Part shown: in pieces, positions 1 to 40,434 of the stretch
How the letters are laid out: the number at the start of each line of letters is the position of its first letter
Position numbering within the stretch: the first letter of the stretch is position 1
DNA from: Podarcis cretensis
Lineage: Eukaryota
Reading direction: 5' to 3'
DNA length: 64,000 nt
Assembly (NCBI GenBank): GCA_951804945.1
Contig: OX638151.1
Span: 54,932,001-54,996,000, forward strand
Translations under genes and position numbers: made by a program
Notes under the pieces: generated by a model
Told to the model about the DNA's origin: nothing
Seen by the model: the letters and a program-made list of their open reading frames with translations, nothing else
Databases searched by the model: none

Positions 1-1
1 C

Positions 2-208
2 TGGCATCCAGGAAAAAAACTAAATGGGGCTTTCTTTAATATTTCTTGCATTCTTAGTGTAATCAACGGCAGTATTAATCCTTTTGTGTACTTCCTTGTT
101 GGAAGACGAAAACAACAGAGGTCTCGGGAGACATTCTCTGCTGTGTTTCATCGATCCTGGAAGGATGAGACAGAAGTGGTGGTGACACAACAAACACATG
201 TTCACTGA
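2..208 (+). CDS. 3' end (TM7, helix 8, C-tail) of a MAS1/MRGPR-family GPCR, truncated by the window edge
   Basis: Frame from base 2 reads WHPGKKLNGAFFNISCILSVINGSINPFVYFLVGRRKQQRSRETFSAVFHRSWKDETEVVVTQQTHVH*. It has NPxxY and resembles the MAS1 C-terminus (NSSANPFIYFFVG...RAFKDE). AATAAA at 452-457. Confidence 0.88.
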   Translation, partial: WHPGKKLNGAFFNISCILSVINGSINPFVYFLVGRRKQQRSRETFSAVFHRSWKDETEVVVTQQTHVH

Positions 209-1051
209 ACATTGCCCATATGGGCTGGGGGCTGACGAGTATTGGAATCCAACAGCCTTTGGGAGGCCCCAGGTTCCCCATCTCTGCTCTAGAAGCTATT
301 AGAGCAATGTGACTGAAGTTTTTTTTTTAAGTTCGAATTTCATTATATACATTAAACATATATCTAAACCAATCTTATTACAAATGTATTGTGTTACATG
401 AGCATATTTACAACAGTCTGTAGATGAATGCACCACATTGTGCCAGGGTTCAATAAAGGATTTCCACCCCAACAGAGATCTGTTCCGTTTCTGACTTCAC
501 TCTCACTTAATTTGGTGATTTACATATGACAGTATAATCAGGACCCGCCTTTAAATTTCATGCCAGAGCCCTCCTTCTGCTCCGGAGATGGTAGGCTCTC
601 CTCAGTCCTAAATTCCTCCATCAATCAAAGCTTCCAATAAAACAGTTGATTAAAAATAAGGTATGGAATATAAATGCAGACCAATATCTCAGCAGCATGC
701 TGTTTTCACATGACTGGAAACATACTCCATCAAGCTTAGAGTCATATGAAATTTAATGTCACACTAATATAATCGTTACAACAGCACAAGCATTTCTGCT
801 TTCCAGTGGAACAATCTACCATTTCCCTGCCTGTGTGCTATTCTAGGGGTTCTCCTGACCCTCCCCCCAAAAAGAGCTGATTCAGAGAGAGGAGAGGGGC
901 ATGAGGAGAGGACCAGTTGTGCTGACTCCCACTACTGCAATTATTTTTTGAATCTTGCCCAAAGAAATCAATGAGACTTAAGTTTGTCATGAGCAACTGG
1001 TCCGATTGAGTTCAGTGCATCTTCTTGAAGCATGGCTAAGTCTAGAGTCAA

Positions 1052-1163
1052 ACATGAGTCTGACCAAACTGCGAGAGGCAGTGGAAGTCAGGAGTGCCTG
1101 GTGTGCTCTGGTCCATGGGGTCACGAAGAGTCGGACACGACTAAAAGACTAAACAACAACAAA
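1052..1163 (+). mobile_element. 5'-truncated BovB/RTE-type retroposon 3' end
   Basis: GTCCATGGGGTCACGAAGAGTCGGACACGACT and (CAA)n tail; 14-bp TSD AAGTCTAGAGTCAA at 1038-1051 and 1164-1177. Confidence 0.8.
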
Positions 1164-2488: not shown

Positions 2489-2790
2489 TCTACCAGGCTG
2501 ATCAAGAAAGTCTCCATCTGAAACCGGAGTAGGAAGCTGCATCCAGTGTAATGATATTGTGATCTTCACAATACTGCAGCTAACAGTTCTTGTGAGGTCA
2601 TGAAAATCTCATATTGTTTGTTACATAGGGCGCCCATCATCATACTGAGGTGGGCCATACAATTGCAGCAGTACAGTTTTAAGAAGGACAGAAGCATGAA
2701 CACAGGAAGGTGAAAAGAAAACTGGAGAGCGATCACGGTAGTATTCAGATTTCTGTCTTCCAACTGCTCTTACTAATTTTATTAAAAGAA
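2489..2790 (+). promoter_or_regulatory. Conserved upstream module (putative promoter and non-coding exon 1) of gene A
   Basis: TGAGGTCA at 2593-2600, TTGTTACAT, GAAGGTGAAAAGAAAACTGGAG; a homologue lies upstream of every receptor gene. Confidence 0.6.
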
Positions 2791-4130
2791 AGGCCAAGAG
2801 TTTCATTACTCACATGCGTCTGTTTAAAAGGCATCACAGAGGAGAATTTTTAAGGAGCACAGTGTCAAACAGATCACTGCTGTACCTTGAGTGGAAATGG
2901 AGGGATGAGGGAAACAAAGGTAAAGTGAGGATGTCTTATTTCCATCAGGCACTTGCCTCTGAAGCCTTCTCTACAGAAATAAGGTTAACATTTATTTCCA
3001 GTTCACTGGCATAGGGAGATAAATACTTTAGAAGGCACATTTCTAGTCTGGTGTACAGATTTCTAAACCACCAGTCTTAATAGTCAAATATGAGCGGGCC
3101 CCTCAGTTCAATCATCTATTACTTCACAATAGCTAGAGACTTTGCCCAGACTTTTGCTTCACTGGGATGGAGTTGCTTCAATCTACTGATCTTGCCCTTA
3201 GTCTAAGAGGTATGTCTGGTCCAGGAGAAGATAAAACCATGACCACTCAGATATGCCTTCTGGAAAGTCAGACATAGAGCTGAAGTCTTAGAGCTGAGGG
3301 TGTCACATTCCCTTCTCTCATTCTTCTCCTGTTTTGATCCTGAGTAGGGGTTGTCCTGGGGTGCCCTGCTGACATTCATAGGAAAACAGTTGCTCATTTC
3401 CCATTTCCCATTAAGCAAAGAGTGGTGTGCCCATGTTCCCAAATCATAAATATAAGCAAAATTAACAGAGGATTTAAAAGTTAGGCTGTAGAAACCAAGA
3501 CACTTTGGAGGAATGTTGCCTCCTGCCAAATACAAACCTGATACACAAAAAGAAAGGTTCATGAGGATTTAAGGATGGCATGGGAGGTATCTTTTAGCTG
3601 TCTGGTGGGCAAATATGGCATACCATTCATGTTTTCAAGAGAAGCATAACTGCTTTCATGTAAAGTGATGGACAAGTAGTAAATACCTATTCCCAAGTCA
3701 TGAAGGCATTCCAAAATACCCTGAAATAATCGCTTGAAAAACATATTCTGTCATTGCTCAGACAAAAACAGTTGCTTGGATCCCAAATTACCATGAATTC
3801 CCCCTCTACTTTTCTCACAGGATAGGAGAAAGAGTTGGTTTTTGCCAGTTCTCTCTCCCTCCCTTCCCATAGTCCTCCTTGATCCCTTAAAATCTGGGCT
3901 GCCAATAAAAGACATGGAGGTTCACATGAGCCCCTCGGGCTGCATGTCAAACCAAAGCAGTATTATATTTTGATATTCCCATTAACTCATTTCTTCTTTC
4001 ACAATAATTTTATTACATAAAAACTGAATTCCAAATTTGGTACAAGCTAATAAAGTTGCCCAGTCTAGTTACCAATTCAGATATATTGTATTTTATTGCA
4101 GCTATTCATTGCAGGATGCTAGTATTTAGG

Positions 4131-4279
4131 TGAAATTGGGTTAGTGTGAAACTGATAATCTTAGGCTAAGATAATTACACCTATTTCATTGTTTTTCAAC
4201 ATTAGTTGAAATTGGGTTAGTGTGAAACTGATAATCTTAGGCTAAGATAATTACACCTATTTCATTGTTTTTCAACATT
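4131..4279 (+). repeat. Tandem duplication, 73-bp identical core, period 76
   Basis: TGAAATTGGG…TTCAACATT at 4131-4203 and 4207-4279. Confidence 0.9.
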
Positions 4280-4489
4280 TGGTATCAAATATTTCCATGC
4301 AGTAGGGAAAATGTGCTGTGTTGTGACTATTTTCTGTTCTTTATAATTGTCCATGCAACAATTTACTTCACAATAGCAGACGCCATCTGCAGTGAGAAAA
4401 TTAGCTATGTTGTATTTTAAACAGAGGCACCTGCAGGAAATAATAATCAATGACAGCCTTCCTCAACCTGATGCCCACCTGATATTTTT

Positions 4490-5420
4490 GATGATGATGA
4501 TGATATATTTTCACCCTGCCCATCTGGCTGGGTTTCCACAGCCACTCTGGGTGGCTTCCAACAAAATATTAAAAATACAGTGGTACCTCGGGTTACATAC
4601 GCTTCAGGTTACAGACTCCACTAACCCAGAAATAGTGCTTCAGGTTAAGAACTTTGCTTCAGGATGAGAACAAAAATCATGCTCTGGCGGCATGGCAGCA
4701 GCAGGAGGCCCCATTAGCTAAAGTGGTGCTTCAGGTTAAGAACAGTTTCAAGCTAAGTACGGACCTCCGGAATGAATTAAGTACTTAACCCGAGGTACCA
4801 CTGTACAATAAAGCATCAGACATTCAAAACTTCCCTAAACAGGGCTGCCTGCAGATATTTTCTAAAAGTCAGAAAGTTGTTTATTTTCTTGACATCTGAT
4901 GGGAGGGCGTTCCACAGGGCAGGTGCCACTACCAAGAAGGCCCTCTGCCTAGTTCCCTGCAACCTCACTTCTCGCAGGGAGGGAACCACCAGAAGGCCCT
5001 TGGAGCTGGCCCTCAGTGTCTGGGCTGAACGATGGGGGTGGATATGCTCTTTCAGGTATACTGGGCCGAGGCCGTTTAAAGGTCAACACCAACACTTTTA
5101 ATTGTGCTCAGAAACGTACTGGGAACCAATGTAGGTCTTTCAAGACTGGTGTTATGTGGTCTCGGCGGCCGCTCCCAGTCATCAGTCTGGCTGCCGCATT
5201 CTGGATTAGTTGTAGCTTCTGGGACACCTTCAAAGGCAGGCCCATGTAGAGCGCATGGCAGTAGTCCTAGTGGGAGATAACTAGAGCATGCACCACTCTG
5301 GCAGGTAGGGTCTCAGCCTGTGTACCTGATGGAGCTGGTAGACAGTTGCCCTGGACACAGAATTGACCTGCGCCTCCATGGACAGCTGTGAGTCCAAAAT
5401 GACTCCCAGGCTGCGCACCT
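4490..5420 (-). mobile_element. L2/CR1-clade LINE 3' fragment with a nested Tigger-like MITE
   Basis: Minus-strand translation VRSLGVILDSQLSMEAQVNSV…RLRPYL; (ATC)n tail; the same 3' end recurs at about 51400, 60655 and 61100. Confidence 0.8.
4578..4803. mobile_element. Tc1/mariner (Tigger-like) MITE
   Basis: TIR CAGTGGTACCTC…GAGGTACCACTG; TA TSD. Confidence 0.85.
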
Positions 5421-5806
5421 TATTACAACTCCCATGAGCCCCATCCAGCATGGCCAGTGGACAGGGATGATGGAAGTTGCAGTCAAAATGTTTGGAGGGC
5501 ACCAGGTTGTGCAAGGCTGTTTCATTTGGATGAGTTATGCATACTAAGGTTTTCCTGCAGAAACTGATGAAAGGTCATACCAGTTTTTGTAGGCTTGTGC
5601 TCTCTAAAGAAAGACACAAAGTCCAGTATGTAGAAGAAAGCCATGGGAGAAAATTCCAAAGTGGCAAGTGGAATATTGTAATACAAACATTCTTGCCTTG
5701 ACGGTTTCCTACCTCTATCACTACTTCACAACACCATAATAATGACAATCTGTGTTTGATTTTTGGCAGGTTGAAGAGAATTGCTTCATACATTAACAGT
5801 CCCAAG

Positions 5807-6778
5807 ATGGCAGAGTCATACTCCTTGTCTTTCCACACTATTGGTGGAGTCAGAAACCCCGCAGGACAACTGGATACTGGCTACGCCATGCAAAGAACAA
5901 TTATGATAATAACTATTCCAATTTGTGCTTTAGGATTACTTGGCAATGGAATTGTCTTCTGGCTTCTTTGGAACAGGATTCAGAAAACTAACTTCACTGT
6001 GTATTTCCTGAATATGGCAGTTGCTGATCTTACTGTACTCTCCTACTATGTAACAGCTTTCGTTTTATTTTTGAAATCTGTTCCGATCAGCATATACCAT
6101 TTACATATAGTAGAGTTGGTGCATTCATTTGGATTCAATGCCAGCACCTATCTGCTTACAGCTATCGCAGCTGAAAGATACCTCATGGTCTTTTTCCCAG
6201 TTTGGTATCAAGCTAGACGGCCAAAGTATCTCTCTGAAATTATGTGCACCGTTTTATGGGGTCTGTCCGGCCTGATGTCACTGGTGTTGTATTGTGCCTG
6301 CTATCTACAATTTGAGTCCACGGTCAACGAAAAGAATGCAAGTTGTGAGCCTTCAAAAATGTTCAGAGTGATATTCAACCTCCTGGTTTGTCTTCCCATC
6401 ATGGTCTTTTCCACTTTGATCCTTCTGATCAGAATGCTGAGGACAGAGCAAACGCCTCCGGCAAAGCTGGACATCACCATTGTGGCCACAGTTCTCCTCT
6501 TTATTCTGTTTGCTGCTTCCGTGAGGATCATTGATATCATGGCACGTTGGGTTCCAACCATACATGTACCAGTGCTCTTTTTAATCTTACATTTTCTTGA
6601 TTCCATAGACAGCAGTGGAAACCCTTTTGTATATCTTTTTGTTGGATATACAACAAAAGGAGAGGTTGGCAACAAGCCCATCCAGACATATCTTGAGAGA
6701 GCTTTCTTGGATGAAGGAACTGAGAGTGCTCCAATGAATACAGGAAAGGCTGTGACCTGGGCCTCAGACATAAGATAG
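5807..6778 (+). CDS. MAS-related GPCR (MAS1/MRGPRH-like), gene A, 323 aa, single coding exon
   Basis: Seven hydrophobic segments; GLLGNGIVFWLL, NMAVAD, AERY, FFPVWY..RPKYLS, GNPFVYLFVG. Acceptor ttttggcAG at 5768-5769; first ATG after it is 5807. The ORF-track start at 5756 is intronic. Confidence 0.93.
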   Translation: MAESYSLSFHTIGGVRNPAGQLDTGYAMQRTIMIITIPICALGLLGNGIVFWLLWNRIQKTNFTVYFLNMAVADLTVLSYYVTAFVLFLKSVPISIYHLHIVELVHSFGFNASTYLLTAIAAERYLMVFFPVWYQARRPKYLSEIMCTVLWGLSGLMSLVLYCACYLQFESTVNEKNASCEPSKMFRVIFNLLVCLPIMVFSTLILLIRMLRTEQTPPAKLDITIVATVLLFILFAASVRIIDIMARWVPTIHVPVLFLILHFLDSIDSSGNPFVYLFVGYTTKGEVGNKPIQTYLERAFLDEGTESAPMNTGKAVTWASDIR

Positions 6779-6839
6779 AAAGGATTATATATAGAGGTAT
6801 ATTGCAAAATTATTCTACACGTGGGAATACTAGCTCCAG

Positions 6840-9329: not shown

Positions 9330-9560
9330 TAGATGTTCCCACACTCCAGAAAACAGTTGCTGTGAGGTCATAAGATTCTTACATTCCATTTATTACATAG
9401 GAACACATCACCACAGTGCTGTGGTTCATACTTTTGCAGTAGTAAGCTCCTGAGAAGAGTAAAAGAGTGGCCTCCTAAGGTTGAAAAGACAACTGGAGGT
9501 TAACTATAATGGTAGCATTTCTTTGTTTATCTTGAAGCTCATTATTTTATGCTTGTTGGT
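9330..9560 (+). promoter_or_regulatory. Upstream module of gene B
   Basis: TGAGGTCA at 9363-9370, TATTACAT, AAGGTTGAAAAGACAACTGGAG. Confidence 0.6.
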
Positions 9561-10410
9561 GTTTTAAAATGTTTTTAATGCTTTAACTATGCTTATATTT
9601 TATTTATCATTTTCATGAGTCACATCATTACATGTCTTTAACAAATGTCCTGGGAATTTGCTAGACTGAATTTGATTCCCACCCCCCCTTCCTAAGAACC
9701 TTCAGTCATAACCATGGTGTTGGGTAGATCACTGTACACCTTTTGTACATGCACCTTTTGTACTGTGATGAGGCCTGGGTATAGCTGTGGCAGTGTCAGA
9801 GGAGAAAGCAATTGATGGAATTACATTTTCATCCAACACCTGTCCCTGACATCTTCTCTCCAGAAGATGCAATTGTGTTACATTACCTTGGAGTCAAACT
9901 CCCACAATCTGGAAACATAGTGGGAACTCCACAGATGAAACAGATGGCAAGAAAATTCCCTTCTGCTCAAACCCCAAAGAAGGACCTCCTCCAACCAGAA
10001 GCCCTTGTGCCACAAGAGCTGCTGGACAACCCTTGCAACCATATTTGCAGCCCCCTTCCAACAACTCCGTTTCAGAATTTGTGAGAGAGTCAAGGTACTC
10101 CTAAAACTTCCAGAGCCAACATGTGAAAAATTACCCAGGCAAGGAGCTAAGCACTCTGTCTGGGCAGCGCAGCCACATTTATAAACCTTCAGTGAGCTCC
10201 AGATCTTTGCTGGATCAACAGATCAGCCTACTCTATTTGGATGACTGCATCTATTTGAAAATGTTGCCTTCTTTCTTGCCTTTTGTGGCAATCACACAGG
10301 GTCCCGGGACGTTTGACGGTCTATTGATCCCTGTGCCACCACTGTGATTGCCTCTTCGCTGCCACCAACCCGTTTCTCATGGGTACGCACGGAGTCCAGA
10401 CAGTTGTTAA

Positions 10411-10675
10411 TGTTATGTAGTGATGTTTCACCCTGGGCCAGCAGGGGGATACTGTATATAGTTTTCACTCAGGTCTGTAGATAGTTTTCACTCAGGTCCA
10501 CGTCAGTTATTTTAGGCGGGAACTCTGGGCTGTTGCTGCTACAATGTTGACAGCCGGCTGCCTATAAAAGCAGGCCGGGTGAGCTGTTTGCAGTCAGTTC
10601 TATTCCAGCTTACAAAATAAAGAGCTACTTGGAGAAATCGCTGTGTCGTCTGCTATGTCAACCCACAACTTAACA
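10411..10675 (+). mobile_element. Solo LTR, nested in a second LTR-like element (about 10284-11038)
   Basis: TGTTA…TAACA ends, TATAAAAG at about 10563, AATAAA at about 10616, flanks GTTAA/ATTAA; host element is bounded by TGTGGC…GCCACA. Confidence 0.6.
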
Positions 10676-11706
10676 ATTAACATTAACAAATAATCAGGTT
10701 TATTGTTTAGCATGAACAAGTTTAAAGTTTCAGTTAATTTTTCTTGTCAGTTTCTTAATCTTAGTTCCTTAACTGACCTATCCGTTCCTAACAACTTCAA
10801 ACTGATTATCCCAACTAACTATCTGATTCCACCTAACAGTTCCTCTCACTCCCTCACAACACAACTCGACCAACCCACAGACTTATCCTCCCTCTTCCTT
10901 CACCAACTCCCAACTCTCAACTGACTTCCACACAACACAGACTCTAACTCTAACTCCTCCTATCAGTTTTTCTCTGGCCAATCACATCACACTCATTTAA
11001 CTCTTTCCTTATGACCCACCTAGGAGGCAAACGCCACACCTGCTAGTCCTGTTTTAGAACGTTGCCTAGGAACCAGATAATGCCTTGTATCCTACTTGTG
11101 TTTTTCTGGCCCTACTAGTGGGGCTTTCACCACATTCAACTGGCTTCTTCATAATAGGCATGCACTTTGCCAAGTGACTCCCTGGGACGGAGTTTGCTTG
11201 ATACAGGCCTTGCAGGTAGTTCAGAGGGCAAGGCCTGGTCTATACATGCAGCACTGTGAGATGATAAAGTCCTGAGATGGCACAACCGACTGCGCCACAA
11301 AAGATTGCTGTGGAGGCAGTAGAAGTCAAGATATGGGGCCCTTAGCGGGAAAAGCCTATAACCAATTGCTGTCACTAGTAAACCCATCTTGGCTGCACAA
11401 ATTGAAAGGTGTGTCAGAGCCCAAGGCTCTTAAGGCACTTTCAGGACTGGCTTGTTTGAAACCTGGTAACTCTCATTTCAGATAAAACAGAAAGCTGTGC
11501 TGGATTGGAGATGCCTGGGTTGGACTGCTGCACATTGTGAAGAGAGGAGGGAAAGAGCTGCATGAGCAAAAGGTGTGTGCACACCTAAGCTTATTAAGAG
11601 AGGAATGATGGTCTGAACTGGGATATTTTGCACATTTAGATATCCTGAATTAACTTCATGAAACAGAAGTTTGGATCATGGAAGTTAGCCAAATGGCATC
11701 ATGTAC

Positions 11707-11743
<37 letters not shown>

Positions 11744-12050
11744 TATGAGGAAATTGCATACCCTGTCATTCACTTCATTAAAAAAACCTGAGGGTGTGAT
11801 TGTTCTAAAATGAGTTCGTTCTTGCGAGTTGCTCAATATGTTTCCAGTGCAAGGTAGGCTGTATTTTCTTACCCGCAACAGCTAGATGACAGAGCACTGG
11901 TACTTGATAGAAACTGAACCACCATAAAGCCTCATTGCTATGTAAAGCAATATTGACTATTTGAATGCTTTTCTGCATATGAGTATATTTGGTACAAAAC
12001 ATTTCCTTGCAGAAGGGTTGTATATGAAACATTCAAATTTGACTCAAAAT

Positions 12051-12237
12051 AAAAAAAAATCCTTCCAGTAGCACCTTAGAGACCAACTAAGTTTGTTATT
12101 GGTATGAGCTTTCGTGTGCATGCACACAAAAGTTCATACCAATAACAAACTTAGTTGGTCTCTAAGGTGCTACTGGAAGGAATTTTTTTTATTTTGTTTC
12201 AACTACGGCAGACCAACACGGCTACCTGCCTGTAACT
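12051..12237. mobile_element. Penelope-like element terminus collapsed into a 120-bp palindrome
   Basis: 12061-12120 and 12121-12180 are inverted repeats with 2 mismatches, followed by CAGACCAACACGGCTACC. Confidence 0.65.
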
Positions 12238-12573
12238 CAGATTTGACTGTTTCCTATTCATCTTTTGCAGATGACTTCTGGAAAAATCCAGTACTGACTG
12301 TAATTTCTGTCTGTACTGAGAAAACAGGTACAGAATCCTTCAAACATGTAGATCTGGGGTGCACTATCTTCTGGAGGTTGTGATATTTTAGGGGGAGTAT
12401 CTGGATGGTTGATACCTGCTAGGGCTTACCATAGAAGCAGCGAAAGGCAACAGAAAATTGTGTAATGATAAAGCACCCCCGTGTCATCTAAATGAATGCA
12501 GAAAGCCCCTGTACCGAGGAAGCAGCCTAGGGAGGAAAATAAATTCCAGTTTAGCCTTTATTAACCAAAGCTT

Positions 12574-12717: not shown

Positions 12718-12854
12718 AACCAAAGCTTATGGGACTGGAATATTGTCTGTCAAGTGATCTTCTTGGATGTTTTCTACCTCTATCACTACATCATACTAAT
12801 GACAAATTGTGTTTGATTTATAGCAGGTGAAGAATTGGTGGACACATTAAGGCC

Positions 12855-13820
12855 ATGACAGATGCAATTGCTTTGTCTTCCCACACTGCTACAATCAATA
12901 CAATTTATGCACAACTGGAGAACTGGGCAAAGAAGCAATATTTCTTGGAAACAATTATCATTTTATCTATTCCAATTTGCATCTGGGGATTAATTGGGAA
13001 TGGAGTTGACTTCTGGCTTCTTTGCTTCAGGATCAAGAGGACTAGGTTCTCAGTTTATATTCTCAATTTGACAGCTGCTGATCTTATTGTAAACATCTAC
13101 TACATTATGGTTTTTATCACATTTTTGGCACAAATTTATGTCAATCTCTACTTTTCAAGTGTAATGGAGATTATATATTTATTTGGATACAATACCAGCA
13201 TCTACTTGGTAACAGCTCTCACTGCTGAAAGGTACCTCACTGTCTTCTTCCCAGTCTGGTATCAACGTCACAGGCTAAAGTACCTCTCCATCATTGTGTG
13301 TGCCGTGTTGTGGCCCTTGTCCTGCCTGGTGTCACTGGTGGCCTATATTTCCTGCTATCCAAGGTTCCTTTCATCTCACAACGAAGAGAGAGCAGATTGT
13401 ACAGCTGCAACTATATTTGAAATTACAATAACTTTTCTGGTTTTCCAACCCATCATGCTTTTTTCTACCGCAGCTCTTTGTGTCAAAATGCAAAGAGAAG
13501 CCAAGCAAAGCGCTCCAGCAAGACTTGATATCACCATCACCATCTTAGCTGTTGTATTTCTTATCTTTTCTTTCACAGTTCGAACTGTTGATGCCATCGC
13601 ATATTGGCACCAAACACTAGATGCACCAGTCCCATTTCTACTTTCTCTGTTGTTTGATTCCATCAAGAGCAGCATCAACCCTTTCATATATCTTGCTGTT
13701 GGATGTTGGAAGAGAGGGAAGCCCATCCATATGTTTCTTGAGAGAGCTTTGAGTGGCAAAGCAGAGAGAACTCAAGTAGACCAAGAGGAGACTGAGAAGC
13801 ATCCAGAGCCTCAAATGTGA
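12855..13820 (+). CDS. MAS-related GPCR, gene B, 321 aa
   Basis: 7TM; GLIGNG, NLTAAD, GYNTSIYLVTALTAERY, INPFIYLAVG. Acceptor AG at 12825-12826; an in-frame TGA just after it fixes the start at 12855. Confidence 0.93.
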   Translation: MTDAIALSSHTATINTIYAQLENWAKKQYFLETIIILSIPICIWGLIGNGVDFWLLCFRIKRTRFSVYILNLTAADLIVNIYYIMVFITFLAQIYVNLYFSSVMEIIYLFGYNTSIYLVTALTAERYLTVFFPVWYQRHRLKYLSIIVCAVLWPLSCLVSLVAYISCYPRFLSSHNEERADCTAATIFEITITFLVFQPIMLFSTAALCVKMQREAKQSAPARLDITITILAVVFLIFSFTVRTVDAIAYWHQTLDAPVPFLLSLLFDSIKSSINPFIYLAVGCWKRGKPIHMFLERALSGKAERTQVDQEETEKHPEPQM

Positions 13821-14346
13821 ACTGAAAAGGCTTCTAAGTCAAAGAATATAGACTGGCATTTCTGGTTCCTGAATAAATATATTATGACTTGTTTATTTTA
13901 CTGTTTGTTACTTGTAGGCTACAATACTCACCTAGGGACCATGGAAAAGTCATCTGCAGATGGGGTAACAGGGCCCTCAAATCACCAAAGAGGTGTATCT
14001 TTGCAGGATTAAGCTTCTACGAAATGCAGAAGTATGATCAAACAAGGTGGAAAAGAAAACTGGAGAGTAACCCTGGTGATACTGACAACTTTGTTTTGCT
14101 AAATAAATACTAGGCCTGTAATCCTCACTCGACATACCTGGAAGTAAGCCCCATTGAATTCAATAGGACTGACTTCTGAATAGACACAGTTGGGACTGAG
14201 CAGTAACCATGCCTTTTAGATAGGCATTGTGTCTATCTAAAAGGTATCGAAATGCCACAGCCCAGTTAGGGAATGGAGTTAAATAGTGAGCCTTGAACAA
14301 CAGCTTTGCTCTGTGTGCCAAGTTGACCAGGCTTAAGATATGCAGT

Positions 14347-17024: not shown

Positions 17025-17530
17025 TACCAGGGTAATCAAAGCAGTCTCTTTCCTTGATCTGAAGCCAGATTTCAATAGGTACAGAGAAGTATGTGAGTTT
17101 AATCATATTGTGGCTGACAGTCACTATGAGGTCATGAAATTCTTGTATTCAGTTGTTACACAACCAACACTTCATAATAGTGGCACTTGGTCACATCTTT
17201 GCAGAATTCTATTACTGTGAGAGGAAGACGAATGAGAAAAGAAGGTTGAAACGAAAATTGGAGTGCAACTATGTTAGTATTGACTTTTCTGCTTTGCAGC
17301 TGCTTACGTCAGTGTGATTCTCAACATCTATATTCATGTTAGTCTCATCAAGTCTGCTTAACAGGCTTTATAGGAACTTGCCAGAGATAATTTGGGGTAT
17401 CTCTACTTGCTTCTCCCAACAACATCCATTCAGTAATCAAATTGTGAAGCAGATCACTGTATAAAAGTATATGGCCACCCTTCATATTTTGTGATGGTTG
17501 CAAAGGAATGAAAAGGGGAAGAGGCGAGAA
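17025..17530 (+). promoter_or_regulatory. Upstream module of gene C
   Basis: TGAGGTCA at 17127-17134, TTGTTACAC, GAAGGTTGAAACGAAAATTGGAG. Confidence 0.6.
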
Positions 17531-18078: not shown

Positions 18079-19051
18079 GTTGAAAGGAATAATAGCTTAT
18101 ATTGATAATGTGATACCAGAAGAAGGCATATCGCCTTCCAGCTCTGCTGGTGTAACCAAGAAACCCTACAGACTTCCCAAGGAGCTTGGAACAATTTTTA
18201 TTGCAACTATTCCAGTCAGCATCTTTGCATTCATAGCGAATGTAATTGTCTTTTGGCTTTTCTGCTACAAGATCAAACACACTAACTTAACCCCCTATTT
18301 TTTAAATCTTACTATTGCAAATCTTCTGACAAGCTTCTGCAGTGCTGAAGTTGCTTTTTTATATTCTATAAATGTACGTCTAGTTTCTCCAATTCAACGT
18401 CTAATCCAGATGCTCTATATATGTGCCTATGACACCAATTTATACATCTTTACAGCTCTCACTGCTGAAAGGTACATCACTGTCTATTTCCCAGTCTGGT
18501 GGCAACATCACCGGCCTGAGTATTTCTCAACCATACTGTGTGTGATTTTATGGATGTTGTCTTGCAATCTGTCACTTCTGTACTTTTTTTTCTGCTTCCC
18601 AAAATTCTTCATAACCGCTAAGGAATTTGAATCTCAATGTGGAACTTCAAGTATAATATCCTTAATAACTGAGGTGGTTCTTGTCCCATCCAGCGTGTTG
18701 TTTTTCTCTTTGGCCATTTGGATCAGAACCCTAAGATCACAGCAAAAGCCCCGAGAAAGACTTGACATTACCATTGTGGCCATAGCAACAGTGATTCTTA
18801 TCTTCAATGTCCCAACCAGAGCTACATTTACTTTTTCATTTTGGAAACTCCCAGTAGATTTGACTACATTGAAAATCATTACTGTGTTACTGGATTCAAT
18901 CTGCTGCAGTGCCATTGCTATTGTGTACCTTATTGTTGGATGCTGGAAGAGGTGGGAAGCCTTAAAGTCCTTCCATATGCTACTTGAGGGAGCACTGGAG
19001 GATACAGAAAACATGCCAGAGTCAACCAAAACAGATGAGGTGCAAGCCTGA
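18079..19051 (+). CDS. MAS-related GPCR, gene C; ORF intact but start codon uncertain (possible pseudogene)
   Basis: 7TM ORF 18062-19051 with AERY, FPVWWQHHRP, RLDITIVAIA. The conserved acceptor tttgacAG is at 18077-18078, and the homologous ATG position reads ATA (18113). The only early in-frame ATG (18062) lies upstream of the acceptor. Confidence 0.8.
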
Positions 19052-22850: not shown

Positions 22851-23350
22851 TCTACCAGGGAAATCAAAGCAGTCTCCTTCTCTTCATTTGAAGCTATATG
22901 TATATAGGTACAAGGTGATATCACTGTGAGCGTAACTATATCACACCTGACAGTAGTTGTGAGGTCATGAGATTCTAGTATTCAGTTTGTTACATAAGTC
23001 ACACTTCATAGGAGTGGAACTGATCATATTATGCAGAAGCATGGTCAAAGAAGTTTGAAATGAAAATTGGAGTACAATCACGTTAGTACTGACTCTTCTG
23101 TCTTGCCACTGCTTACGTGAGTTTGATTTTTAAACAGCTACATTTCTGCTAGTTCCCCTCATCTTCTATCTGTTTTGCAGGTCTTGTAGGAACCTGCAGA
23201 ATTAATTCTGACTGTATGTGGTCTATTTCTCCAAAGAGAACCCAAACAGCGATCAGATCTTTAAGCAGTTTGCTACATAAATAATATATACCTAGCCTTT
23301 GTACTTTTGTGATGGGTAGGAATGACAGAGGGGCAATGAGAAAATCTTAT
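22851..23350 (+). promoter_or_regulatory. Upstream module of gene D
   Basis: TGAGGTCA at 22960-22967, TTGTTACATAA, candidate donor CTTAC|GTGAGT. Confidence 0.6.
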
Positions 23351-26135: not shown

Positions 26136-27107
26136 ATGGAATACATTGATAATGTCATGATGGCAAAAGCAAACACCTTGTCTTCCCACACTGCTGGTGC
26201 ACCCAAGAAAATGGTCAAATACATGCAAGCTTCATACTATTTCAGATTAAATATGCTGATTGCATCTGTTCCCATCTGCATTGGTGGATTAATAGCTAAT
26301 GCAATTGTCTTGTACCTTTACTGCTGCAAGATCAACAAGCCAAAGTTAGGCCCATATTTTTTAAATGTGACCTTTGCAAATCTTATTATAATCTTGTGCA
26401 ACCTTGAAGTGGCTGCTTTTTTTCTCGGAGACATGAAAACCTCTACAGTAGTCCAACGTGTAATGGAGATGCTTCATATTTTTGCATATGATACCACCTT
26501 ATATATCTTCACAGCTCTCACCGCTGAAAGGTTTCTCACTGTCTATTTCCCAGTCTGGTGGCAACATCACCGGTTCAAAGATTTCTCTGTCTCAATGTGT
26601 GCGATTTTGTGGATGGTTTCTGGCCTGGAGTCACTTATGGCATATTTTTCCTGCTATCCAAGATATGAAATTGTTAATGTTAACACTGCCATCTGTACAA
26701 TTGCAAATATAGTAGAAGTCATCATGGAAGCCATCCTTTTTTTCCCCAGCTTGTTCTTCTTCACTTTGGCCATTTGGATCAGAAGTCGAAGACCACAGCA
26801 AAAGCCTCTAGCAAGACTTGACATCACCATTGTAGTCATAGCTATTCTGATTCTGATTCTCAGTGTCCCAACTAGATTACTTCATGCTATTTCATATTGG
26901 GTGGAATCAATGAACTGGTATCTGTTGACGACCACTGCTCTGTTACTGGATACTTGTACCTGCAGCAGCATTCCTTTTGTATTCCTCATTGTTGGAAGCT
27001 GGAAGGGGCAGAAAGGCTTTGAACCCTTCTGTTTGTTTCTTGAGAGGGCTTTAAAGGATACTGAAGACACAGCAGAGCCAACAGCAGCGAACCAGGAGCA
27101 GGCATGA
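26136..27107 (+). CDS. MAS-related GPCR, gene D, 323 aa
   Basis: 7TM; acceptor AG at 26121-26122, ATG at 26136; AERF, FPVWWQHHR, RLDITIV, SSIPFVFLIVG, FLERALKD. Confidence 0.92.
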   Translation: MEYIDNVMMAKANTLSSHTAGAPKKMVKYMQASYYFRLNMLIASVPICIGGLIANAIVLYLYCCKINKPKLGPYFLNVTFANLIIILCNLEVAAFFLGDMKTSTVVQRVMEMLHIFAYDTTLYIFTALTAERFLTVYFPVWWQHHRFKDFSVSMCAILWMVSGLESLMAYFSCYPRYEIVNVNTAICTIANIVEVIMEAILFFPSLFFFTLAIWIRSRRPQQKPLARLDITIVVIAILILILSVPTRLLHAISYWVESMNWYLLTTTALLLDTCTCSSIPFVFLIVGSWKGQKGFEPFCLFLERALKDTEDTAEPTAANQEQA

Positions 27108-28532: not shown

Positions 28533-28996
28533 CTATAGATTTGTATAACTGCATTATGGTCTCAGCATAATTCCTTTCCATTCCTTTCCCTAGCATGGAA
28601 TTCATTTTTTTTCTTCACAGCAGCAGCACAGCTTTACTGGTACAAAGAAATTATTGCACTGGCTTTAGTAAATCTGCTTCGTTTGATGAATATCTTGTGG
28701 ATTAATATTACTGTACTTTCTTCAGAGAGTTTGCATTAAGCACACAACAGCTACAATTATATTTACTTATAAATATTAAAGGCAGAGCTTCACAAACTAA
28801 GATTCACTGGAAATATAGGTCATCGCTCTGTTTGATTTTGCATTTTGCATTTATTTTTTATTTTAAATTTTTTTGGTTTTGCATTTTAAATGTTTTTAAA
28901 AAATAAAAAAATGAATTAAGTTTTTAAAGTAGTATCATGCTGATACATATTGATTTAGAAGCAACACAAGCAGCTCTTTGGCTTGAAATTCCACTT

Positions 28997-29630
28997 GTGT
29001 AACAAACTGAATGTTGGAATCTCATGACCTCACAGCAATTGTTAGCCAAGGTGAGCATTAGCTCATCTGTGATATCATTCTGTATCCATTCCAACATTCA
29101 GTTTGTTACACTTCACAATAGTGAAGCAAGTCACAACTTTGTAGGAATGTTTTCTGTACAGAGCAGAAGTATGATCAAAGAAGGTTGAAATGAACATTGG
29201 AGTGCATCTACCGGTATTGTCTTTTCTGTCTTGCAGCTGCTTTTGTGAGCTTGATTCGTAACCATTACATTTTTGTTACTGCCATCATTACCTAACTAAT
29301 TAACTTGCCAGACTTAATTCTGATTCTATGTGGCCTATTTATCCTGAGTATCCTGTCCAGATAGTTAAGCACAGGCATAGGCAAACTCGGCCCTCCAGAT
29401 GTTTTGAGACTACAATTCCCATCATCCCTGACCACTGGTCCTGTTAAGCTAGGGATGGTGGGAGTTATAGTCTCAAAACTTCAGGAGGGCCGAGTTTGCC
29501 TATGCCTGGTTAAGCAGATCACTGCACAAATAATATGTCTCCAACTTTGCCCTTTTTTGTTGGTGGAAGTGGCAGAGGGGCAAAGAGAGGAAGATTTAAA
29601 AAGGCAGAAAAACTGATATCTGTTAGTCAT
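28997..29630 (+). promoter_or_regulatory. Upstream module of gene E (5' part inverted, hAT MITE inserted)
   Basis: TGACCTCA at 29025-29032 (reverse orientation); the rest of the module is forward from 29088. Confidence 0.6.
29372..29508. mobile_element. hAT-like hairpin MITE
   Basis: Long TIR CAGGCATAGGCAAACTCGGCCCTCC; 8-bp TSD GTTAAGCA. Confidence 0.85.
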
Positions 29631-32197: not shown

Positions 32198-33163
32198 ATG
32201 GAAAACATCAATAATGTCATGATGGCAAAGGCAAGCACCTTGTCTTCCCACACTACTGATGCATGCAAGAATACTGTCAAATACATGCAAGCTTCATACT
32301 TCTACAGATTAAACGTGCTGGCTGTATCTATTCCCATCTGCATCATTGGATTAATAGCTAATGCAATTGTCTTGTGCCTTTACTGCTTCAAGATCAACAA
32401 GCCAAAGTTAGGCCCATATTTTTTGAGTGTGACCTTTGCAAACCTTATTGTAATCTTGTCCAACCTTGAAGTGGCTGCTTTTCTTCTCGCAGGAGTGGAA
32501 ACCCCTTTAGTGATTCAACGTCTAATGGAGATACTTCATATATTTGCATATGACACAAATATATACGTCGTAACATTTCTCACTGCTGACAGATTCCTCA
32601 TTGTCTATTTCCCAGTCTGGTGGCAACATCACCGGACCAAGCATTTCACGGTAATGATGTGTGTGATTTTGTGGTTCGTTTCTGGCCTAGAGTCACTGGT
32701 GGAATATTTTTCCTGCTATGCAACAGTCAGTACTTGGGCTTATAACACCTGTAGAACTGCAAGCGTGCTGGCACTCCTCATGGAGGTCATTATTTTTTCC
32801 TCCTGCATTTTCTGTTTCTCTTTTGCCATTTGGATCAGAATGCAAAGATCACAGCAAAAGCATCGAGCAAGACTTGACATAACCATTGTGGCCATAGCAA
32901 TTCTTATTCTTTTGCTTACTGTCCCAGTTAGACTTGTTAATATTATTTCACTTTGGGTAAGTGCAATAGATTATTATATGTTCACTAGCATTAGTCTGTT
33001 ACTGGATACTTGTACCTGCAGCAGCATTCCTTTTGTATTCCTCATTGTTGGAAGCTGGAAGAGGCAGAAAGGCTTTGAACCCTTCTATATGTTTCTTGAG
33101 AGGGCTTTAAAGGATACTGAAGACACATCAGAGCCAACAGCAGCGGACCAGGAGCAGGCATGA
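32198..33163 (+). CDS. MAS-related GPCR, gene E, 321 aa (closest paralogue of D)
   Basis: 7TM; acceptor AG at 32183-32184, ATG at 32198; ADRF, FPVWWQHHR, SSIPFVFLIVG. Confidence 0.92.
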   Translation: MENINNVMMAKASTLSSHTTDACKNTVKYMQASYFYRLNVLAVSIPICIIGLIANAIVLCLYCFKINKPKLGPYFLSVTFANLIVILSNLEVAAFLLAGVETPLVIQRLMEILHIFAYDTNIYVVTFLTADRFLIVYFPVWWQHHRTKHFTVMMCVILWFVSGLESLVEYFSCYATVSTWAYNTCRTASVLALLMEVIIFSSCIFCFSFAIWIRMQRSQQKHRARLDITIVAIAILILLLTVPVRLVNIISLWVSAIDYYMFTSISLLLDTCTCSSIPFVFLIVGSWKRQKGFEPFYMFLERALKDTEDTSEPTAADQEQA

Positions 33164-36351: not shown

Positions 36352-36790
36352 TCTACCTGGACAATCAAGTCAGGTTCTCTGTCAAACCCAAAGCAGATGC
36401 GAGGTTGAAATGGATCCAGAATGATGCCATGGCGCACATCACCTGACCATGGCTAACAGTTGCTATGAGGTCATGGGATTCTCATATTCTCTTTGTTACA
36501 TACAGCACGCATCATCATAGTGAGGTGGGTCACGCTTTCACAACTCCTACAGTGAGCGGAAATGTAACCAAAGAAAGTTGAAAAGAACCTTGGACTCATA
36601 CTAGCATTTATTTTTATTTCTTGCAGTCATTCACTTCAGTTTGATTTTTTAGATTTTCATTAGTTTCATTAGCTCTTCATTTAGCGGGAATTCTGGGAAC
36701 TTGCCTGTTTCATAATTCTGGCTATATCTGAACTGATCTGTTTTTCCTGTGAACAAGCAGCCAGCACAAATAATATGCCTCAATCACCTG
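36352..36790 (+). promoter_or_regulatory. Upstream module of gene F
   Basis: TGAGGTCA at 36466-36473, TTGTTACAT, GAAAGTTGAAAAGAACCTTGGA. Confidence 0.6.
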
Positions 36791-38761
36791 TCTTATCATC
36801 ATTATCATCATCACCCTTATAATATTTATTTATGTCCCACTTTTTTCTCAGTCCAGGACTCAAGGCAGCATACAAAGGTAAAACAGAACAAGCTACAAAC
36901 AGAAAAGGAAATCATTAAAATGGAATTATAAATACCAATAGTATTAAAATAATATAAAAAGATGCATTAAAATACTATGGCTTAGGCTTTCACAACATGG
37001 TGCCCTCCCAATATTTTTTTTATATTACAGCTTCCATCAGCACCAGCCAGCGTGGGCAATAGTCAGAGATGGCAGTTGTAGTCCAAAACATCTGGAGGGC
37101 ACCAGGTTGGGAAGGTGCCCTGGTCTCTCTGTTAAAAGGGTGTCCATATGATAGCTTCCAAGTGTCTTTTCATTCTTGTAGGGCACAATCGGTCATCTAG
37201 TTTGCTAGGGAGCCAAGGGCGATGAAATGGTTGGTTTGCAAGGGGGAGGGGGAAGTCTCAATGTGAACTTGACAAAACACAGGCAGAGCTTATCAAGTGT
37301 ACTCTGCACACTCTCAAAATGTTTAGCAGTGGTCTGTATAACAAAACTTGAGCAGAGCGCTTCACAGAGGTATCGAGCATGCTGTCAAGTCCTGTTGTGT
37401 GCCACTGTACAGTTCCAGCTGTTCTAGCCTGAGCTTTGAACAAGGTGTCTGAATGGATCCAGCCTACCACAGGGCTGCTCAATTCCTGCCTCTCTTCTCT
37501 TCTCTTCTTACATCTACCAGGGGACTGTGGCTCCAACAATCTTAAAATAAATGGTTCTGAGACCACTACTAAAGAAATTCTTCCCGGACTCTAAGACTGG
37601 CCGGAATCACCACCACCAAGCCTTGTCACTGCGCAGTTCCAGCCTCTGTAGGAAAACACCTATTACATGGATCCATTTTAATTGGCTTTCTTGCCTGTGT
37701 TTGACTCAGAAACTGTTTTGTTTGCCCTGATGAATTAGCTACACCAGTATATGTTGCTAAGATCCACAAATGGAAGTTTGAGTTCCAAGGATATAATGAG
37801 ACATATCATGCAGTTGTCTAGTGGAAAGACCCTGCATAACATCCACAGCTTGACAAAGGAAGTCAAGCATATAACTATTGTGATAGGCAGATTTTTTCAA
37901 GGCCTATCGGAGATTATGTATATTGACTAGGAAATGTGCACAATTCCATCTTCATGGGCAAATCATGTGTACATTCTCCATGATGCTTGATTGTTATGTG
38001 CATTAACTACTCAGCTTACATTCTCCTTAACAAATGCATCAGAGCAGTTAAAATAATTTGTGAGGTATTTTAAAATGCTGCATGAATCTGAAACCCCTCT
38101 TGCTGAAATAATACAATGTTAGTTACAATGTTAAGTTTCAGTTTGTCAACCTGGGGTGGATCTACACAGAGGGGGGGAAATGCTATAAATAAGTCAGAAA
38201 TTAGACCCTTATAACAACAACAACAACAACAACAACAATGGAAAAACACATATATAAATTTCCTGCTCTCTCGCACCATCTCGTGTTGCATGTTTATAGC
38301 ACATTCAAATTGTTGTTTCTTTATTAATGTAGCTGAGTCCCTGGTTTTGTTCCTGAACTGGCTCCAAACTGGTTTACCACATCCACTGCCTCTCTTGCAT
38401 TGGATGACAGGAACAAGAGTTATGAGATATCAGACGTGTCTAAAGAGCCAAGGCTTATTGTAGCAATAGATGGCAATGAAAGGCTACATCACATTTTGTA
38501 GACTTCAACGATATCCCATGTCCCCTAAATTGAAGGTTTATAGGCCCCTGAACAATTGAGTATTAAGCAGCCAGCGAAGAAGAGAAGGGAGATCATTCCC
38601 TGCAAATACTAGTGAACATTATAACACAAATGTCTTTGTCAGACAGGAGATCCTCTTGAAACTTTGCCTCCTCTTTTACAATATTTCAGCACCTAATAAT
38701 CACACAAAATGTGTTTCATGTTGGCAGGTTGAGAAGAGTTACTGAACATACTGATCATCTC

Positions 38762-39697
38762 ATGCTGGAACAGAAAAACAATCTATCTGCCCATGCTGCT
38801 GATGCAGAGAACGAGAATGTCAGCAATGAAGGCAACACGAAGGAAACAATGATCATCATATGCATTCCAATCTGCATTTTGGGATTAGTTGGAAATGGAA
38901 TGGTCATTTTGTTTCTTCGCTATATGATCAAGAAGAATAAGTTTAATGTGTATGTCATGAATATGGCTATGGCTGATTTTGTTGTTGTTCTCTATCTATT
39001 GAGTTATTTTGCATTATTTGTAGAACCAGCTCCTATCAATGCACACACTTCACGTTTTCTAGAGATAACATATATTCTTGGACGCAACTCTAGTTTCTAT
39101 ATATTAACAGCTCTCTGTGCTGAAAGGTATCTGTCACTTTTTTCCCCTGTCTGGTGTCAACGTCACAGACCAGAGAACCTCTCAGCTATTGTGTCTGCTA
39201 TTCTGTGGGCCTTCTCATGCGTAATATCTTTTGTAGAAGAATTTACATGCTATCCAAGATTCTATGCACTTATGAATGAAGACACTTTCCCTTGTGATAT
39301 TGCAAAAACAATTGAAGTTATCACCGACTTCCTGATTTTTGTGCCCATCATGGTCTTTTGTACTGTGGCCATTTTTATCAAAAAGCAGGAGAAAACACAA
39401 ACAATGCTCGACAAGACGATTGCAGCGACAGTTATTCTGTTTCTAATTTTTGATGCGTCAGCTAGACTTTTGGAATATATAGACTACTGGCATGGTGATA
39501 TAGTAGAAATACCAGTGTTTACATTCTCTGTGTTATTTGATTCCATAACCAGCAGCATCAACCCTTTTTTATATTTTGCTATTGGATGGTGGAGCAGGCA
39601 AAACACCTGGGAAGCCTTAGAGATTTTTGTAGAGAGAGCTTTGAATTATGAAACAAACACAGAACAAACAACACAAACAGACGAAGAGGAGACTTGA
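38762..39697 (+). CDS. MAS-related GPCR, gene F, 311 aa
   Basis: 7TM; acceptor AG at 38726-38727, ATG at 38762; GLVGNG, NMAMAD, AERY, INPFLYFAIG; N-terminal sequons NLS and NVS. Confidence 0.93.
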   Translation: MLEQKNNLSAHAADAENENVSNEGNTKETMIIICIPICILGLVGNGMVILFLRYMIKKNKFNVYVMNMAMADFVVVLYLLSYFALFVEPAPINAHTSRFLEITYILGRNSSFYILTALCAERYLSLFSPVWCQRHRPENLSAIVSAILWAFSCVISFVEEFTCYPRFYALMNEDTFPCDIAKTIEVITDFLIFVPIMVFCTVAIFIKKQEKTQTMLDKTIAATVILFLIFDASARLLEYIDYWHGDIVEIPVFTFSVLFDSITSSINPFLYFAIGWWSRQNTWEALEIFVERALNYETNTEQTTQTDEEET

Positions 39698-40434
39698 AAA
39701 TAGCCTCACCTCAGAAACCAAACAACATTCCTCATATAAAGAGGAGTGCTGACTTGCATTCCAATCTCCAGAATAAATGAATTACAGATAATTTATCTTG
39801 CTGTTTGTCACTTCTATCTAACCCACCCAATATCTACAGCAGAGTCAACTGCATCTTTTATTTGAGCCAGAGGATACTTGTCCATTTCTGCTATGTCAGG
39901 GGGTCAAGAACGCTGAAAGAGAGGTAGACCTGTGGAAGGTTAAAAAATGTTAACCTTACCAAAAAAAACTTTGAAGTGTGTTGCAGTGATTGGACGACTA
40001 CAGAATGAGACTGAATTCTCAAATCACGACATAAACTTCGGCAAAAGCCACAGAAAAGAAGGATCAGAGAGTAGCCGATATATACAAAAACCAGAAAGAA
40101 TCATAGTGGAGGAGAGGAAAGGAGGAAGGGAGAAAATTTATGGGCAGGTATCTACTGTCTGAAAGACCACAATTATTCAGATTCAGATGCAGCTGGGAAC
40201 AGAGAATGATGGACTGTCTTCTAGCAAAATCTTAATACAGAAATATACCCCTCCCTATCCGCTACTTTACAATGGCCTACTCTTCCATCGCACTTCCCAC
40301 ATTAGGAACCACACATAGGTTTGGGACTACTAGAGAAATGCAATGTATTTTAATATATTGTAAGTATCGCTTACAGTGATGATGAGGAAGAAAAGGACAC
40401 ACAGCAGATAAAAATGCTTCCAGTAGATGATTGT

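Follow-up and report, generated by a model that had tools for sequence, protein, structure and literature searches.

The interval between IGF2R and PNLDC1 in the lizard Podarcis cretensis raises the question of what its row of MAS/MRGPR-like genes represents: MAS1 itself, a counterpart of Mrgprh, or a repertoire of sensory or immune receptors, as the initial annotation of the 64,000-nucleotide stretch analysed here (the window) had suggested. Within 224 kb around the window we found exactly seven MAS-like loci (g1-g7), all on the forward strand and none on the reverse, with CDS starts 5.2-8.1 kb apart, which bears out the tandem same-strand arrangement first described beside PNLDC1. The six intact ORFs counted initially are confirmed (ATG to stop on the forward strand, 311-329 aa, starting at 5807, 12855, 18062, 26136, 32198 and 38762), and the total of intact genes rises to seven of seven. 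The first gene is merely clipped by the window edge; in the flanking assembly its ORF is complete, with the start 766 nt beyond the left edge and the end at window position 208. No broken copy of these genes was seen in the 224 kb. The features are as follows.

1..208, forward: 3' end of g1, an intact MAS-like CDS of 324 aa with orthologues from gecko to snake
2593..2737, forward: g2 upstream module with the TGAGGTCAT motif and a first exon that is not coding, followed by a GT donor at 2738; run X3 has the joint 2736-5769 (GT..AG)
5807..6778, forward: g2 CDS, 323 aa; Ser in place of P6.50; AATAAA at 6840
9363..9511, forward: g3 upstream module and first exon; joint 9510-11481 in runs X1 and X3
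11482..11572, forward: g3 second exon, non-coding; joints in X1 and X3
12855..13820, forward: g3 CDS, 321 aa; has one-to-one orthologues throughout lizards, with a conserved outer and a relaxed inner half
13950..14100, forward: incomplete additional upstream module, attached to no CDS
17127..17272, forward: g4 upstream module plus first exon, whose last two letters are the AT of the split start codon; joint 17272-18079 (GT..AG) in X3
18079..19051, forward: g4 coding exon; D2.50N; NPxxY reads IAIVY; ATG at 18062 intronic
22853..23081, forward: g5 upstream module; GT donor assigned by homology, not from RNA
26136..27107, forward: g5 CDS, 323 aa; D2.50N; NPxxY reads IPFVF
28995..29257, forward: g6 upstream module, with an altered donor and with the part that bears the motif in inverted orientation
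32198..33163, forward: g6 CDS, 321 aa; recently duplicated from g5 (69% aa identity); intact Lacerta orthologue at 85%
36450..36620, forward: g7 upstream module; homologous donor is AC instead of GT
38762..39697, forward: g7 CDS, 311 aa; Ser in place of P6.50; the most acidic of the outer halves (16 D/E)
52539..55859, reverse: two exons of the CAF1 family, belonging to the PARN-like neighbor, a landmark outside the array; PNLDC1 by synteny

Pfam 7tm_1 matched all six ORFs of the window (g5 and g6 below the curated cut-off), MAS1 was the best sequence match among solved structures (183 bits vs 118 for MRGPRD), and a structure model, made for g3 only (pLDDT 88.5), had MAS1 as its top fold match, followed by MRGPRX1 and MRGPRD. 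These matches place the array in the class A 7TM fold, nearest to MAS1/MRGPR structures; the ORF at 54572-55066 matched no Pfam family. As first reported, the copies are strongly divergent (29-46% pairwise identity among g2-g7, except for g5/g6 at 69%), and the cysteine pattern attributed to them holds throughout: seven of seven have a Cys at the end of TM4 and another at the start of TM5, and none has one at 3.25, a position occupied by Cys in both outgroup receptors compared. The pair is found in every counted row of the g2-g7 clade and is labile among g1 orthologues. MRGPRs carry a TM4-TM5 disulfide instead of the TM3-ECL2 one (PMC9287403), and by analogy with structure work on MRGPRD the pair may form such a bond here, holding a shallow pocket. 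The W6.48 toggle switch is missing from the TM6 segments of the array, as in the MAS/MRGPR family.

Duplication as whole genomic units, also proposed initially, stands for g2-g7, which share a homologous upstream module, a homologous acceptor and an AATAAA 37-90 nt past the stop, and does not extend to g1, for which no upstream module of this type was found. Their modules carry the TGAGGTCAT motif in five forward copies and one inverted copy (g6). Transcript evidence comes from a close relative and spans the first 19.5 kb of the window, from the end of g1 to g4, in runs without tissue label. Spliced contigs of g2, g3 and g4 occur in runs X1/X3, and CDS depth for the same three genes is about zero in runs X14 and X12. 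The g4 ORF is intact as stated, with a corrected start: in run X3 the spliced ATG is split across the intron 17272/18079. Counting listed differences only, g2 differs from the relative's contigs by five silent changes and one replacement (pN/pS 0.06), and g3 by six silent changes and nine replacements (pN/pS 0.43).

The later copies could be surplus duplicates, with g4-g7 under relaxed selection and drifting toward pseudogenes and only g1-g3 of consequence. Their eroded motifs, the dN/dS of g5/g6 (0.83-1.17, in a range of 0.6-1.2 for g4-g6), the Pfam scores of these two genes, the altered donor of g7 and the inverted module of g6 would all fit. However, g4 is spliced in run X3, the inner half of g5/g6 shows pN 0.11 vs pS 0.20, intact relatives of g6, g7 and the D2.50N clade exist in other squamates, and when the g5/g6 distance was simulated neutrally 5000 times, with indels ignored, the frame stayed free of stops in only 0.28% of cases. 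Such decay appears very improbable to us. The earlier concern that the genes might be untranscribed with dN/dS near 1 applies in part, namely to the ratio of g5/g6, whereas g2-g4 are transcribed. Separately, an excess of changes in the outer half of g5/g6 (53/119 vs 32/146, p=1e-4) was considered as a sign of positive selection and rejected, MAS1 and MRGPRH having an outer-half excess too, as is usual in the family, and the Nd/Sd Fisher test giving p=0.18.

Synteny provides clues on the origin of the array. The lizard order is IGF2R(-), array(+), CAF1 gene(-), TCP1(+), and in mouse it is Igf2r(-), Mas1(-), Mrgprh(+), Pnldc1(-), Tcp1(+) (PMC3850781); the array thus sits where mouse Mrgprh does and points the same way. 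By sequence the neighbor is a PARN-like CAF1 gene, called PNLDC1 because of its synteny with IGF2R and TCP1, and this gene order confirms the antisense position initially assigned to the array. The accompanying notion that MRGPRH is confined to rodents does not hold, since marsupial, afrotherian and tarsier MRGPRH rows exist.

The search of the Podarcis cretensis genome yielded neither a MAS1 orthologue nor a remnant of one. When a 14-protein MAS1 profile was run against 2988 six-frame tiles covering both strands of the 224 kb in search of a decayed MAS1, only the seven array genes matched. The best genome match to alligator and monkey MAS1 reaches 40%, whereas true amniote MAS1 orthologues share 55-60% among themselves; genome copy counts are lower bounds. 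A named squamate appeared in none of 90 rows for the MAS1 clade, in a word-based search that gave no turtle MAS1 either. MAS1 was thus likely lost from this lizard, and the data hint weakly at its absence beyond this genome. One published account (PMC3354321) regards MAS1 as present in all tetrapods examined.

Phylogenetic trees were built from subsets of 130, 82, 51 and 441/444 rows, chosen by us to leave out near-duplicates, fragments and surplus rows from amphibians, turtles, birds and a second lizard array on C7 (see below). In the 82-row tree, 35 squamate rows fall together in a single clade (99/94), the g2-g7 clade is supported at 100/100, and a ratite Mas-like gene (Apteryx, Struthio) is sister to the array (100/100). 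MAS1 from tuatara, alligator, birds, mammals and two amphibians groups apart (100/99), as does MRGPRH (100/99); all three share a larger clade (99/94), and the array is separate from the MRGPRA/X/D/F clades. Against a complement-receptor-like outgroup, made up of C3.25-bearing genes from this genome, the array is monophyletic with MAS1/MRGPRs (100/100). The independence from the rodent MrgprA/B and primate MRGPRX expansions claimed at the outset is therefore upheld, and one-to-one orthology of the copies to distinct amniote MRGPRs, looked for in the tree, was not found. AU tests, which are affected by long branches, rejected nesting of the array in amniote MAS1 (p=0.010) or sauropsid MAS1 (p=0.001) and its grouping with tuatara MAS1, the p values for such placements going down to 3e-5, and likewise a g2-g7 clade restricted to lacertids (p=2e-66); they rejected neither the array with MRGPRH (p=0.27, absent from the best tree) nor the array as sister to MAS1 (p=0.44).

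These results support a squamate-specific expansion at the Mrgprh position, as initially proposed; the array lineage may be orthologous to mammalian MRGPRH, a relationship with which the trees are compatible. Both lie between Igf2r and Pnldc1 in matching slot and orientation, belong to the larger clade with MAS1, lack C3.25 and have the Cys pair. In contrast, MRGPRH is single copy in mouse, only 32% identical to g1, has G3.39 where the array has Ser, and retains every switch lost in g2-g7. Alternatively, the array might be the squamate form of MAS1, which would have undergone inversion, duplication and fast evolution there while keeping its role. Its best match among solved structures, the lack of another MAS1 in the genome and the unrejected sisterhood to the whole MAS1 clade point that way, and annotation gives the MAS1 name to different array members in different lizards and snakes. 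Fold, locus and R6.52 are further features in common with MAS1. Yet the nested placements are rejected, and the array lies on the strand opposite to IGF2R and PNLDC1, which mouse Mas1 shares. MAS1 also differs in being conserved (80-91% within mammals and birds) and single-copy, and it forms a separate clade, whose signatures E1.49 (10/12 MAS1 rows) and G3.39 (11/12) occur in none of the seven genes. Ratites, furthermore, have both MAS1 (Rhea) and the array sister, here from different species. We hold an identity with MAS1 to be very unlikely.

As to timing, the duplications are old, g1 and g3 each being matched one-to-one by orthologues throughout lizards, and only g5/g6 look recent; g4-g6 originated within or near lacertids. 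An orthologue of g2 outside lacertids is represented by one named row, from Vipera (67%, above expectation), plus unnamed rows, and other squamates carry their own members of the array lineage.

The activation switches distinguish the copies further. As a conservative parent copy, g1 keeps all class A switches (D2.50, S3.39, ERC, P6.50, NPxxY). In g2, g3 and g7 P6.50 is gone and D7.42 gained (the latter in 10/10 g3 rows), while g4-g6 combine D2.50N, seen in 10/11 rows of one squamate subclade, with an eroded NPxxY. Variability of the outer and inner halves over nine matched species is 0.52/0.28 in g1, 0.48/0.26 in MAS1 and 0.54/0.26 in MRGPRH, against 0.42/0.44 in g3; the outer/inner ratio is 0.86 in g3 and 1.0 in g2 vs 2.4-3.3 in MAS1, MRGPRH, g1 and C7. 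Orthologues of g3 thus conserve the outer half while the half facing the G protein is relaxed, contrary to what is normal in the family. Judging from these residues, the six copies g2-g7 likely have weakened or biased signaling. Nevertheless, R3.50 is kept in all array rows alongside the eroded motifs and relaxed inner half, and g2 retains NPxxY, so that ordinary G-protein coupling may persist; MRGPRD couples to Gi despite non-canonical motifs (PMC9287403).

Could the array be a sensory or mast-cell repertoire with fast turnover, comparable to rodent MrgprA/B or primate MRGPRX, that detects many external irritants or cationic peptides? Its tandem divergent copies, the origin of g4-g6 within or near lacertids and their dN/dS, the acidic outer halves of g3 and g5-g7, the restricted expression of g2-g4 (two runs spliced, two silent) and the members particular to other squamates would agree with this. 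Tandem expansion as such is ordinary for the family, MrgprA/B/X being known for it, and intronless CDS and the TM4-TM5 Cys pair are likewise shared with MrgprA/B, MRGPRX and MRGPRD. However, those receptors belong to another clade and locus, pseudogenes are missing from the array, orthologues of g1 and g3 have been retained for a long time, and the outer half of g3 and g2 is not the faster one. A better fit to such a repertoire is the separate MRGPR-like array on C7, with 28 long ORFs, 7 short pieces and an outer/inner ratio of 3.3. The sensory or immune role first suggested is thus not supported, several copies being long kept and the constraint on g3 running opposite to fast turnover, and we consider it unlikely.

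We lean, with modest confidence, toward an old squamate tandem duplication of a MAS1 paralogue in the Mrgprh slot, which would have produced the seven intact receptor genes, with MAS1 itself absent here and likely lost. Under this scenario g1, with all its switches, would signal conventionally, while g2-g7 would likely be receptors of restricted tissue range, each answering to a peptide or metabolite ligand of its own with G-protein output that is weakened or biased. Their activation path may have changed through the P6.50 and D7.42 replacements in g2/g3/g7 and through D2.50N and NPxxY erosion in g4-g6, and every old copy may retain its own ligand. A bolder scenario, which we regard as decidedly unlikely, is that all squamates lost MAS1 and turned a third MAS paralogue, otherwise kept in ratites only, into an atypical receptor bank, where g3- and D2.50N-types would keep the ligand face, be uncoupled from G proteins and bind squamate peptides as scavengers or as arrestin-only receptors, which would make them the first atypical MAS/MRGPR members. 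C5aR2, a duplicate with ligand anchors kept and G-protein coupling gone (PMC9937529), is comparable in its way of working only: it belongs to another family, and the array receptors keep R3.50, their uncoupling being putative.

The array genes already carry a 'Mas-like' annotation in NCBI. In our literature search on this array or squamate MAS1 loss only a 2019 GPCR cartography (PMC6504862) was relevant; a 2014 Pharmacol Rev review of MAS/Mrgpr may treat reptile copies. One sentence of the cartography mentions a reptile gene cluster near MRGPRH, maybe orthologous or a new subtype, and its supplement lists small groups 'MAS3/MAS4' that "may be orthologous to MAS1"; that sentence gives no synteny, copy number, MAS1 loss or motifs, and its Anolis id is a candidate member of the clade described here. 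If squamates are without MAS1, work on the reptile angiotensin-(1-7) axis would target the wrong gene, and these animals would offer a natural knockout of a still-orphan receptor, the proto-oncogene Mas being so listed in Table 2 of PMC13494238. The array itself amounts to a set of natural single-switch variants on one scaffold, which would make structure-function tests in the MAS/MRGPR family easy to design.

Exactly seven MAS-like receptor loci, all on the plus strand (g1 to g7, from left to right), were found in the 224 kb searched with 135 relatives as queries and then with a MAS1 profile. This agrees with the initial annotation, which had also anticipated their spacing (about 5-8 kb; start-to-start distances are 5.2-8.1 kb) and strong mutual divergence (identities of 29-46%, g5/g6 at 69% being the exception). 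The window holds six plus-strand single-exon ORFs of 311-329 aa, all with Pfam 7tm_1 matches; the proposed number of six intact ORFs stands for these but not as a total, given that g1, whose 3' end is at window 208, has an intact 324-aa ORF once the flanking assembly is added. Similarly, duplication as whole units holds for g2-g7, with their common upstream module (a motif plus first exon 5' of each CDS), acceptor and nearby AATAAA, but not for g1, where the module was not seen. As initially noted, all seven receptors have a Cys at the TM4 end and another at the TM5 start, and lack C3.25 (generic residue numbers are our assignment from the alignment); cysteines so placed form a disulfide in MRGPRD, as described in PMC9287403. 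W6.48 is missing from all seven. The source is a lacertid, with g3 sharing 95-96% identity with Podarcis proteins. A retroelement RVT_1 (reverse-transcriptase) fragment lies inside the predicted g5 intron (window 24934-25479).

The array is flanked as follows (C3, contig OX638151.1):
C3 54.855-54.895 Mb, minus strand, IGF2R repeats
Window 52.5-56 kb, minus strand, PARN-like CAF1 gene
C3 55.003-55.011 Mb, plus strand, TCP1

The mouse order is Igf2r(-), Mas1(-), Mrgprh(+), Pnldc1(-), Tcp1(+) according to a table in PMC3850781, and the Igf2r cluster is described as including Mas1, Mrgprh and Pnldc1 (PMC4666383). Compared with mouse, gene order and strands thus place the array, lying between IGF2R and the CAF1 gene, in the Mrgprh slot and strand, antisense to Pnldc1 as previously suggested, with the Mas1 slot empty. 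When the genome was searched with MAS1 of alligator and monkey, full-length matches reached at most 40% identity; true amniote MAS1 orthologs share 55-60%. The MAS1 profile retrieved only the seven array loci in the 224 kb around the window. Mas orthologs have been reported for all tetrapods analyzed in PMC3354321, and Mas1 is listed among orphans in PMC13494238.

In the main phylogenetic tree (IQ-TREE, mixture model, 82 rows), g1-g7 and 28 other squamate rows form one clade (support 99/94), with a ratite Mas-like pair as sister (100/100). MAS1 from mammals, birds, alligator, tuatara and two amphibians is a separate clade (100/99), as is therian MRGPRH (100/99), and the array, MAS1, MRGPRH and amphibian genes make up one larger group (99/94). 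The array group is apart from MRGPRD/F/X/A, supporting the suggested independence from the MrgprA and MRGPRX expansions, and also from sauropsid genes annotated "MRGPRH-like". MRGPRH is not confined to rodents, as had been assumed, being present also in marsupials, afrotherians and tarsier. Both ECL2-flanking cysteines are missing from the ratite Mas-like proteins P0043, P0045 and P0053.

Orthologs of g1 range from geckos through snakes and those of g3 from Hemicordylus through Anolis; g7 clusters with rows from Elgaria and Salvator, g2 with a single row from Vipera, and g4-g6 together inside a wider subclade. Since gecko genes occur in the g1 clade as well as in the g2-g7 clade, the first duplication is older than the gecko split. 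AU topology tests (51 rows) gave p=0.27 for the array with MRGPRH, p=0.44 for the array as sister to all MAS1, p=3e-5 for the array with tuatara MAS1 and p=2e-66 for g2-g7 alone as a clade. Nesting within amniote MAS1 (p=0.010) or sauropsid MAS1 (p=0.001) was rejected. In a 441-row tree the array clade comprises 71 rows, ratites being the only non-squamates among named rows and a few rows carrying no name. No named squamate occurs among the 90 MAS1-clade rows, an absence that carries little weight because the search behind the rows did not list turtle MAS1 either. Several squamates have 2-4 members on equal-sized contigs, some with adjacent accessions, and may thus carry the same array. Seven proteins with Mas-like names from one caecilian (P0016, P0017, P0042, P0054, P0096, P0366, P0391), on equal-sized contigs, hint at a separate amphibian expansion. 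NCBI annotates the array genes as "proto-oncogene Mas-like" or MAS1, and a reptile cluster near MRGPRH was named as a possible new subtype in PMC6504862; our literature search, which the main 2014 review lay outside, returned no account of the array synteny, MAS1 loss or motif pattern.

Four sequencing runs, all of unlabeled tissue, were aligned to the first 19.5 kb of the window. X1 and X3 are contigs of a close relative from one study; their RNA status is presumed, but the joints are GT..AG introns. Splice joints were found at 2736-5769 in g2 and 17272-18079 in g4 (X3), and at 9510-11481 and 11570-12822 in g3 (both runs). Contig depth (X1/X3) is about 40-125 over the g2, g3 and g4 CDSs and 5 over the g1 tail. 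Raw RNA reads from runs X14 and X12 (other organism label; 1.9 and 1.7 Gb read) left almost no coverage on the CDSs in this stretch. The g4 joint makes the ATG of its ORF intronic, so that the true start is AT|G, split across the intron. The start and the motif of the upstream modules are:
Window 17271-17272 and 18079, plus strand, split start codon of g4 (spliced contig joint)
Window 2593, 9363, 17127, 22960 and 36466, and inverted at 29024, TGAGGTCAT, found only in the six upstream modules

The acceptor-to-ATG stretch is open and in frame also in g2, g5, g6 and g7, and thus the split start may be the ancestral design of these genes. In g7 the donor at the homologous site is not GT, and the g6 module is partly inverted. 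TGAGGTCAT, 120-150 nt 5' of the donor, includes AGGTCA, which we take to resemble a nuclear-receptor half-site; it is a candidate promoter element common to the modules. An orphan partial module copy lies just 3' of g3 (window 13950-14100) and is not followed by a coding exon belonging to it.

Listed differences from the relative's contigs are 5 silent and 1 replacement in g2, and 6 silent and 9 replacement in g3. Paralog dN/dS is 0.3-0.8, and 0.83-1.17 for g5/g6 (three methods). Yet for this pair only 0.28% of 5000 neutral simulations remained stop-free, and the inner, G-protein-facing half has pN 0.11 versus pS 0.20. Overall, the array is real, old and functional at least in part.

The receptors differ in their activation switches. 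D2.50, S3.39, ERC, P6.50 and NPxxY are retained in g1, near-uniformly across 22 g1 rows, and we predict conventional receptor behavior for g1. P6.50 is lost and D7.42 present in g2, g3 and g7; g4-g6 have D2.50N (seen in 10/11 rows of the subclade) together with D3.37, and their NPxxY is eroded. The g3 model has MAS1, MRGPRX1 and MRGPRD as top fold matches. With halves drawn by us from this model, outer (ligand-facing)/inner variability over nine matched species is 0.52/0.28 in g1 and 0.42/0.44 in g3, the g3-g1 difference being -0.11 in the outer half (95% column bootstrap -0.17 to -0.04) and +0.17 in the inner (0.11 to 0.21), tree structure ignored in both. MAS1 and MRGPRH have a pattern like g1.

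A larger MRGPR-like tandem array is located at G000:C7:86,462,000-86,756,000 of this genome (L056-L085), with 28 long ORFs (each matching 220 or more of the 321 profile positions) plus 7 shorter pieces within 350 kb. It clusters with the sauropsid "MRGPRH-like" genes, apart from mammalian MRGPRH. In most copies the TM4-TM5 Cys pair is apparently missing (none in 24/28, trimmed columns) and the DRY motif apparently reads DRC-like. With an outer/inner ratio of 3.3, it looks more like a sensory/immune repertoire than the MAS-like array does. A lone long-branch MRGPR-like gene (L027, G000:C1:85.63 Mb) lies outside both arrays.

The ancestral locus likely held MAS1(-) plus a (+) paralog; in squamates, MAS1 was likely lost and the (+) paralog multiplied. 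From g3, where the outer face is conserved and the inner one relaxed, and from the switch losses in the other copies, we infer that the copies would each keep a ligand, with weakened or biased G-protein output. Coupling may nevertheless be ordinary, as R3.50 is retained throughout the array and MRGPRD couples well despite odd motifs, as described in PMC9287403. The proposed condition parallels C5aR2 beside C5aR1, where ligand anchors are kept and G-protein coupling is absent, as described in PMC9937529. A sensory or immune role of the array is possible but less probable, and the array is a further variant of an already known type of gene expansion.
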